From Tubiluchus corallicola (lineage: Eukaryota > Animalia > Priapulida), in NCBI GenBank assembly GCA_030141605.1, contig JAQGDQ010000322.1:124001-188000 (forward strand): 64,000 bases of DNA, read 5' to 3'. Of the stretch, positions 10,701-13,700 are shown piece by piece. Position 1 is the stretch's first letter. Every line of letters starts with the position of its first letter. The translations under genes and the position numbers were made by a program. The notes beneath the pieces are model-generated. The model was given only the letters and a program-made list of their open reading frames with translations. It was not told where the DNA came from and ran no database searches.

Positions 10701-13700
10701 CATGCAGACACAACATACACAACGTGCAGACACAACATACACAACATGCAGACACAACATACACAACATGCAGACATTATGGTTTATCGTGTTATTTGGT
10801 TTATTTATTGTTATTATTATTTATTTATTTATCGCTTGCTTCATCGTGTCCATACGCGTACACTCATTGCATCTTGTTTAATGAGCAGTAAATGGTTCGC
10901 TTCAACCTACTGTACCTGTGTATGAAAACTGTCTTCATGCCAAGAGACCGCGCTATAGAACATGCAGTAAATGGTTCGCTTCAACCTACTGTACCTGTGT
11001 ATGAAAACTGTCTTCATGCCAAGAGACCGAGCTATAGAACATGCAGTAAATGGTTCGCTTCAACCTACTGTACCTGTGTATGAAAACTGTCTTCATGCCA
11101 AGAGACCGAGCTATAGAACATGCAGTAAATGGTTCGCTTCAACCTACTGTACCTGTGTATGAAAACTGTCTTCATGCCAAGAGACCGAGCTATAGAACAT
11201 GCAGTAAATGGTTCGCTTCAACCTACTGTACCTGTGTATGAAAACTGTCTTCATGCCAAGAGACCGAGCTATAGAACATGCAGTAAATGGTTCGCTTCAA
11301 CCTACTGTACCTGTGTATAAAAACTGTCTTCATGCCAAGAGACCGCGCTATAGAACATGCAGTAAATGGTTCGCTTCAATCTACTGTACCTGTGTATGAA
11401 AACTGTCTTCAGGCCAAGAGACCGAGCTATAGAACATGCAGTAAATGGTTCGCTTCAATCTACTGTACCTGTGTATGAAAACTGTCTTCATGCCAAGAGA
11501 CCGCGCTATAGAACATGCAGTAAATGGTTCGCTTCAACCTACTGTACCTGTGTATGAAAACTGTCTTCATGCCAAGAGACCGCGCTATAGAACATGCAGT
11601 AAATGGTTCGCTTCAACCTACTGTACCTGTATATGAAAACTGTCTTCATGCCAAGAGACAGTGCTATAGAACATGCAGTAAATGGTTCGCTTCAACCTAC
11701 TGTACCTGTGTATGAAAACTGTCTTCATGCCAAGAGACCGCGCTATAGAACATGCAGTAAATGGTTCGCTTCAACCTACTGTACCTGTGTATGAAAACTG
11801 TCTCCATGCCAAGAGACCGCGCTATAGAACATGCAGTAAATGGTTCGCTTCAATCTACTGTACCTGTGTATGAAAACTGTCTTCATGCCAAGAGACCGCG
11901 CTATAGAACATGCAGTAAATGGTTCGCTTCAACCTACTGTACCTGTGTATGAAAACTGTCTTCATGCCAAGAGACCGCGCTATAGAACATGCAGTAAATG
12001 GTTCGCTTCAACCTACTGTACCTGTGTATGAAAACTGTCTTCATGCCAAGAGACCGCGCTATAGAACATGCATGTTGGCCTGCCGCTCCTCCGAAACATG
12101 CGAGAACGTGTCTTGATGTATCATGTCCCTTCGCCTGTAAAACAAAAATGAAACTCTTACTACAACTAAGTCATTTAGAAGCTTGTAATGGCCGCTTGAC
12201 ATAGGAACATGTTAGGCAAGCTGGAGAGATTAACATAAATTAAAACTAGCGAAACAATTTAACGGATTGATGTCCACCAGGTTTAAGTATACACTCATAT
12301 CTCGCTTTGCCACACCTCACTTTTACGGAAATCGGAAAATTCCGACAAAATGCGGTCCGTTAAAAGTCACGCATACGGACACGGTCCTTTATTTCGCGAG
12401 CTGACCGCTAGTTGGCAGGCAGTCACTTTGTTTAGATCACGTACATCAGTGTAACCACGTGTATATCTCTATATATAAAAATGTAGGGTCAATTACACGG
12501 AGTTATTTGAGTCAATTGTTATATATACAACTTTTATATACTTTTGCATAGGAGCGACTCGTACTAGACGTTTTGAAACAATTAGACAATTGATCCTACA
12601 TTACAGTGAGTTTAGTACACGGCACCTAGTGTATTAGCTAAGTATTGGTAAATATGTACGATTTGCAAATTCAGACTGGCGTATCACTGCTTTTGTCCGC
12701 CAAACTGAGATATGAGTATATCTTAAACCCATTATCCGGATTATTTTAGGGAGGACATTTCGACTCTTAAACCACTGAAGCAGTCATTATTTATCTGTAT
12801 GAAGCAGCAAAAACAGCGATTAGTTCATCTATAATGGGTCAAGTGACCGTAAGTTACATTTTACCGAGTGTTTGCATTTACAGTCAAATGCTATGCCTTT
12901 CGCCATTTTGCCGTTTTGAACAATGATATCAAGTGTCTACATATTTTTCATGAGACAAACACCTGAACGTTCATTGAAAAAACAACGAGTGATGTTGTTT
13001 ATTTTACATCAACTGTGAGCTTTAACTTGTGACGAATTCAAAAATGCACTGTAAGCAAGGCAACCTGAGTTAGAGCTCTGATTGGTCGACACATTGTCTC
13101 ATTTGCCACCTGCAAAAACCCCATGGCTACGTCCTCCATGGTCTTCGGCACGTAAGCACTGCCTAGCTGATTCTGTCCAAATTCATTCACCTATAAAACA
13201 TCAATTAAATCATTTTACATACACAGCTTACTGCATGACAGCTGCAACAATAGTGTGAGAGACAACAAAGAATGGCACGAGAGGCAACAATGGTGTGAGA
13301 GACAACAATGGCATGAGTGACAACAATGGTATGACAGACAACAATAGTGTGAGAAACAACAATCTGTGAGAAACAACAATGGTGTGAGAGACAATAATTA
13401 ATGGCATGAGAGGCAACAATGGTGTGAGAGACAACAATGATATGAGAGACAACAATGGCATGACAGACAACAATGGTGTGAGAGACAACAATCTGTTACA
13501 GACAACAATGGTGTGAGAGGCAACAATGGCATGACAGACAACAATGGTGTGAGAGACAACAATCTGTTACAGACAACAATGGTGTGAGAGGCAACAGTGG
13601 CATGAGTGACAACAATGGCATGAGAGACAACATTGGTATGACAGACAACAATAGTGTGAGAAACAACAATGGTGTGAGAGACAACAATTAATGGCATGAG

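Follow-up and report, generated by a model that had tools for sequence, protein, structure and literature searches.

In the 64,000-nucleotide stretch of DNA analysed here (the window), the splice donor at the end of exon 12 of a 5-oxoprolinase gene (OPLAH), which acts in glutathione recycling, is followed by 14 further copies of itself, which raises the question whether such a series of donors serves the splicing of the gene or is simply carried along in its intron. The gene was identified by a homologue search together with tblastn, and Tandem Repeats Finder reports a period of 79 bp with 15.0 copies, 98% matches, no indels and a score of 2278 at 10885-12072. The features needed for the following analysis are listed below, splice boundaries being marked by a slash.

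4748..28136, minus strand: first 18 coding exons of OPLAH, 760 codons without a stop; the remainder of the gene lies beyond the matched part.
12022..12134, minus strand: OPLAH coding exon 12, 113 nt, whose last 51 nt are copy 1 (homologue-based model).
9947..12021, minus strand: OPLAH intron 12, 2,075 nt, or 969 nt minus the 14 extra units (model).
9858..9946, minus strand: OPLAH exon 13 with the acceptor TTTATAG/G (model).
10885..12072, minus strand: 79-bp minisatellite of 15 head-to-tail units, each made of 51 nt of OPLAH exon 12 and 28 nt of intron 12.
12016..12024, minus strand: authentic donor CAG/GTACAG in copy 1, the sole donor keeping the frame open.
10910..11945, minus strand: 14 identical spare donors with cuts after 11943, 11864 ... 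10916, each leading to a premature stop.
11943..11979, minus strand: possible pseudo-exon of 37 nt, one per internal copy, from a TATAG/CG acceptor (4.8 bits) to a spare donor (prediction only).

Read on the minus strand, every unit begins with the 51 nt of exon, which start with TGC, and continues with the 28 nt of intron. TGC flanks the array at both ends, opening copy 1 and following directly on copy 15. The preliminary description had given a tandem array of 15 near-identical 79-bp units, each with about 50 nt of coding sequence and about 30 nt of intron between tgc edges, and this anatomy is confirmed down to the exact lengths; it had overlooked a second AG/GT (TAG/GTTGAA), which is present in 12 of the 15 units. 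The authentic CAG/GTACAG is kept in all 15 copies. Pairwise, the copies differ by 2.0% on average, with 8 variant alleles at 7 variable positions, and the donor nonamer is hit by none of the eight. A divergence of 2% among copies suggests that the array is young. One variant is common to copies 9 and 11-14 and another to copies 3, 8 and 9, copy 9 thus having both; one of these two shared variants is at a CpG and could be recurrent. Variants that tell individual copies apart are present in copies 3, 4, 6 and 8-14. Sharing between neighbours is what slippage or unequal exchange would leave behind as an array grows. When three units were folded as RNA, the z value was 0.11, and no structure able to hide donors resulted. 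The array's upstream edge is covered by a perfect 12-bp palindrome, AACATGCATGTT (12066-12077, minus strand), which may have aided the first duplication or may be there by chance. An unrelated 22-bp array is located in the same intron, at 10437-10776.

To place the host, a quick IQ-TREE tree was calculated from 41 OPLAH proteins, 40 of which were picked from long matches among 120 listed, with Priapulus as the sole named scalidophoran. Here, the protein of the window is sister to that of Priapulus caudatus (SH-aLRT 100, 74% identity) and stands apart from Branchiostoma, so that the host is probably a priapulid or a close relative, this being the resolution which the tree allows. Among the 120 matches listed, an OPLAH protein of the same species was absent, the best match reaching 86% with the exon 2 query and 93% with the exon 12 query.

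An open frame that matches the homologues is obtained from the donor of copy 1 only. The donor of copy 2 would lengthen the exon to 192 nt and shift the frame, which then meets a stop at residue 573, the donors of copies 3-15 would lead to a stop at residue 548 in every case, and inclusion of the 37-nt pseudo-exon would shift the frame towards a stop at residue 559. Extensions of the exon by 79 nt, which had been proposed as a possible outcome, can thus be drawn as sequence, but all 14 extended products hold a premature stop, i.e. the spare donors would be non-productive in 14 of 14 cases. Since this applies to every spare donor, no array copy would provide a new protein. Leakage to spare donors would instead supply nonsense-mediated decay. 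OPLAH homologues comprise ~1,300 residues, and an insert at the junction of exons 12 and 13 is missing from 124 of the 133 long ones. A search of public runs listed no RNA run as containing the OPLAH region; run X2, which is RNA by guess, gave four short partial pieces in one part and none in the other.

Independent DNA data bear on the reality of the repeat. A public DNA run with different flank alleles (7 differences in ~630 bases; 22 in 632) contains a contig of 109 bases (79+30, one full turn of the unit), which bridges the unit-to-unit junction with 0 mismatches. Tandem copies are thus present outside this assembly as well. The depth at the unit junction is 12 in this run, compared to 11-25 (one value of 67) in single-copy flanks; depth does not give copy number here, so that the figure of 15 copies is that of this assembly. 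An artefact of assembly or amplification that had raised the copy number would agree with this depth, which is flank-like and not many-fold above the flanks in one independent run with other alleles, but it has to be set against the occurrence of the unit junction itself in independent data, the 8 variant alleles among the copies, two of them common to neighbours, and the higher-order variant patterns of the remaining arrays of the window. We consider such an artefact most improbable. In OPLAH intron 11, positions 12300-12600 hold a high-copy dispersed repeat with a summed contig depth of up to ~19,000 versus 25 in the flank.

By its sequence, the OPLAH array is a boundary-spanning minisatellite (a mirage of the F7 type), since all features of this class that could be tested were found. 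The unit is of minisatellite size and repeated head-to-tail in near-identical form (79 bp x 15.0, 98%), it includes exon and intron (51 + 28 nt) with the edge copy as authentic junction, the splice signal recurs in the intronic copies (CAG/GTACAG in 15/15), and neighbours share variants (copies 9 and 11-14; copies 3, 8 and 9), as produced by slippage or unequal-exchange turnover. The preliminary description had the anatomy right, yet had not named this fitting class. According to the report of Borensztajn 2006 (PMC1557585), only the first donor is used in F7 IVS7 (37 bp x 5-9), PDGF intron 4 (81 bp x 16-18) and LAMIN B2 (100 bp x 10-15), whereas in human 6-16 and CBS (IVS13) two downstream donor copies are used besides; in F7 constructs, as described there, donors are chosen 5'-to-3' so that the most upstream one prevails, and exon definition has a share in this. 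As far as these accounts go, the five human minisatellites resemble the OPLAH array in that the first unit lies over the exon-intron boundary and identical donors are repeated into the intron, and PDGF and LAMIN B2 are also near to it in unit size and copy number. Compared to F7, the OPLAH unit contains 51 nt of coding exon instead of 4 nt, and its host is a probable priapulid.

The second known group are the lancelet mirages (Adh3, the globins BflGb6 and BflGb9, troponin C, PGBD5), for which splicing is reported to be undisturbed by RT-PCR (Ebner 2010, PMC3087553; PMC3902484). As described in these sources, they share with the OPLAH array exon-intron boundaries in tandem, on donor as well as acceptor sides, several per gene region and with locally shared variants. 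They differ from it in that the two edge copies of OPLAH, 1 and 15, match each other fully and are not distinct from the rest, and in that the host is nearer to Priapulus than to Branchiostoma. A literature search on such arrays in priapulids and other invertebrates, with subscription journals and supplements outside its scope, returned lancelet and human cases only, and a term search of PMC10280001 gave 0 hits for such arrays. The novelty is probably limited to the probable priapulid (Ecdysozoa) host, the repeat type being known from human and lancelet genes.

With good confidence, we regard the array as a young minisatellite over the OPLAH exon-12 donor, in which the first donor is likely the sole one used and the 14 copies leave with the intron; it would then be a tolerated by-product of repeat instability and no splicing device. 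The array would have started when 79 bp were duplicated between two TGC triplets, and slippage or unequal exchange would then have let it grow. Human F7 and the lancelet genes suggest that, among several donors, the one closest to the acceptor of the same exon should win, whether through exon definition or through scanning in the 5'-to-3' direction. By analogy, the authentic OPLAH donor likely predominates in splicing, with the use of the last copy in a DNAJB6-like array of the same window (P0121, see below) as proxy, and some leak to downstream donors, as reported for human 6-16 and CBS, is plausible. Leak to copy 2 or a later copy would produce RNA with a premature stop, which is likely degraded; hence, the cost would be small and the spare donors would be backups at most.

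The preliminary description saw the geometry of recursive-splicing points in the internal copies. Hereby, donor 1 would join the AG of an internal copy, CAG/GTACAG would be rebuilt and the intron would leave in steps of 79n nt, resulting in the same mature mRNA. Each internal copy indeed consists of a weak acceptor with a donor next to it, and intron 12 holds 14 CAG/GT and 12 TAG/GT. An intronic AG/GT that would rebuild the donor is shared with the recursive sites of Drosophila and human (PMC6110457, PMC10156609); compared to those, the OPLAH array has a weak acceptor, a short intron, a 79-nt spacing and a young repeat origin. Using a matrix built from just the 22 modelled acceptors of the window, with 1,340 intronic AGs as background, the internal CACAG scores 5.5 bits when three downstream bases are included (above 9/22 real acceptors, top 5% of the 1,340), but 3.2 bits for the intronic 20 nt alone (above 2/22, top 15%), which falls short of the strong acceptor, with pyrimidines preceding the AG, that is expected of a recursive site. 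A branch-like word, TTTAC, occurs 53 nt upstream of the internal AG/GT; however, a better AG (TATAG, 4.8 bits) is placed between the internal AG/GT and the only well-placed branch-like word, and two AGs lie within 20 nt upstream of the internal CACAG, an arrangement seen in 1/22 real acceptors. The search motif Y5-N0-4-YAGGT given in PMC10156609 is fit by 0 of the 26 YAGGT of intron 12, a weak test because its acceptor half fits just 8 of the 22 real acceptors here. Fly recursive sites, as characterised in PMC6110457, are found in the longest 3% of introns, have segments nearly all >1 kb and are conserved; OPLAH intron 12, with only 2,075 nt (the 22 modelled introns of the window span 178-4,210 nt), steps of 79 nt and a young array, does not fall under this long-intron definition; for human, recursive sites are also reported in short introns, where they mostly serve as a minor route (PMC10156609). 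Moreover, 12 of the 23 exons modelled in the window end in AG, so that any repeat over such a donor shows AG/GT and no special cause is needed. Stepwise removal of the intron thus appears very unlikely. Rare stepwise or cryptic splicing in intron 12 is possible, if unsupported, and would leave the mRNA unchanged if stepwise.

Another alternative is a length-variable poison switch, in which use of copy 2 (192-nt exon) or inclusion of the 37-nt pseudo-exon would lead to nonsense-mediated decay, and the length or sequence of the array would tune the OPLAH level. Spare and real donors do not differ in sequence, two further copies are reportedly used in human 6-16 and CBS (PMC1557585), and every product of a spare donor or pseudo-exon has a premature stop; yet scanning, as described for F7, predicts that the nearest one or two copies alone matter, and thus little effect of copy number, and two further arrays of the same build are found at unrelated junctions. 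Such a switch is distinctly unlikely in our view. Intron gain under way by AGGT duplication, the model of Rogers, had also been brought forward. In the cases described for ATP2A1 (PMC3265369) and potato RdRp (PMC4974935), an exonic AGGT is duplicated and coding sequence is found on both sides of the new intron. The OPLAH array shares with them the tandem duplication copying an AG/GT, it has a branch-like word at a distance similar to that given for ATP2A (PMC3265369), and mirages were proposed as raw material of new introns (PMC3087553). In contrast to these cases, the AG/GT duplicated in OPLAH is an existing old boundary, the only AG/GT or AG/GC in the exonic part of the unit; nothing coding follows copy 15, and the copies are wholly intronic and form no new exon-intron structure. 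In addition, 10 of 32 short homologous proteins (<260 residues, from public contigs) cease to be homologous no more than 3 residues away from the exon-12 junction, as would result from read-through into an intron there; indirectly, this makes it likely that the intron has long been at this position and is common to the homologues. Given an old intron and no exon after the copies, a Rogers-type gain does not fit and is barely conceivable. A mirage route to intron gain would require new splice sites, and those are absent from the OPLAH array.

In Mya arenaria, the first part of the corresponding exon occurs three times in tandem in the OPLAH gene model P0241 and once in model P0063. Read from the protein only, P0241 is perhaps an independent boundary repeat at the same OPLAH exon.

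The minisatellite over the exon-12 donor is not the only array of its build in the window. The 30 non-redundant tandem arrays found make up 22% of the window, and two of them lie over acceptors, next to an older duplication of an exon with its donor:

5391..6050, minus strand: 44 bp x 15 over the OPLAH exon 17 acceptor, unit of 30 nt intron and 14 nt exon; the last copy is the real acceptor.
33307..37332, minus strand: 52 bp x 78 over the DNAJB6-like exon 5 acceptor, unit of 18 nt intron and 34 nt exon; the last copy is the real acceptor.
43277..43509, minus strand: DNAJB6-like exon 1 with its donor, older two-copy duplication, 70/92 bases alike, second copy 141 bp downstream.

The AG is kept in all copies of the 44-bp array and in 71 of the 72 full copies of the DNAJB6-like exon 5 array. 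P0121, a protein from a public contig of 1,866 bases, matches the six-exon DNAJB6-like model at 247 of 250 residues; it thus corresponds to the spliced model, in which the last of the 78 acceptors is used. In the second copy of DNAJB6-like exon 1, the start has decayed and the spare donor has decayed to GTATTT. Six copies of the exon 5 array carry a 12-nt deletion which creates a strong acceptor followed by GT (7.7 bits, above 12/22 real acceptors), with GTCATT as a poor donor. By sequence, these six make more plausible candidates for recursive-like sites than those of OPLAH. A G-to-A change has turned 15 of 50 52-bp units into CAG/CAG-type tandem acceptors or similar.

To evaluate the placement of the arrays, one unit of each array was placed at random within the two modelled genes. 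Compared to this null, 3 of the 17 arrays in OPLAH and the DNAJB6-like gene span a junction, with 1.10 expected (P=0.09), and among arrays of at least 10 copies, a subset chosen afterwards in a single window, 3 of 10 do so with 0.58 expected (P=0.016), so that chance alone may not fully account for where the arrays lie. It could be argued from this excess (3/10 versus 0.6 expected) that high-copy minisatellites arise preferentially on splice junctions and that the OPLAH array is live, either as a 79-nt ratchet ladder or as a length-variable poison switch; we consider this combined reading unlikely. Variable positions in intron- versus exon-derived parts of the unit amount to 1/28 versus 6/51 for the 79-bp unit of OPLAH (P=0.41), 8/30 versus 4/14 for the 44-bp unit (P=1.0) and 3/18 versus 16/34 for the 52-bp unit (P=0.04; 50 units of 52 bp, with 27 units of other length omitted and the T-rich part and shared ancestry uncontrolled). 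These values were not accepted as evidence for selection on decoy sites. There is no sign of purging of decoy sites in the OPLAH or DNAJB6-like arrays, the events being too few to judge.

Taken alone, the OPLAH array matters little. The window as a whole is a natural test of splice-site choice, with 14 identical decoy donors after one exon and, ahead of two further exons, 14 and 77 decoy acceptors. In each case, the real site is the copy closest to the opposite end of its exon, i.e. the first transcribed among donors and the last among acceptors, which favours exon definition over a first-come choice. Boundary arrays also lead gene callers to false exon repeats.

Several other elements of the window were recorded. 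Two arrays abut splice sites and do not span them: an array of 10 bp x 25 (8800-9051, minus strand) starts 1-2 nt past the OPLAH exon 14 donor, and another (30874-31097, minus strand) stops 11 nt short of the last DNAJB6-like acceptor. Within a DNAJB6-like intron, a weak CENP-B-like helix-turn-helix remnant is located at 40284-40583 on the plus strand (E 0.0018, under cutoff), and a plus-strand frame of 202 codons at 62760-63368 has no Pfam match. An uninterrupted frame of 392 codons with ankyrin repeats (668-1846, minus strand; Pfam Ank_2, E 2.6e-9) follows exon 18 on the same strand as OPLAH; this frame is probably nested in an OPLAH intron, as no second half of the gene was found in the window. 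Finally, an array of 88 bp x 8 at 58420-59127 on the plus strand has a unit with CAG/GTAAGG near its start and is possibly the donor array of an unmodelled plus-strand exon.
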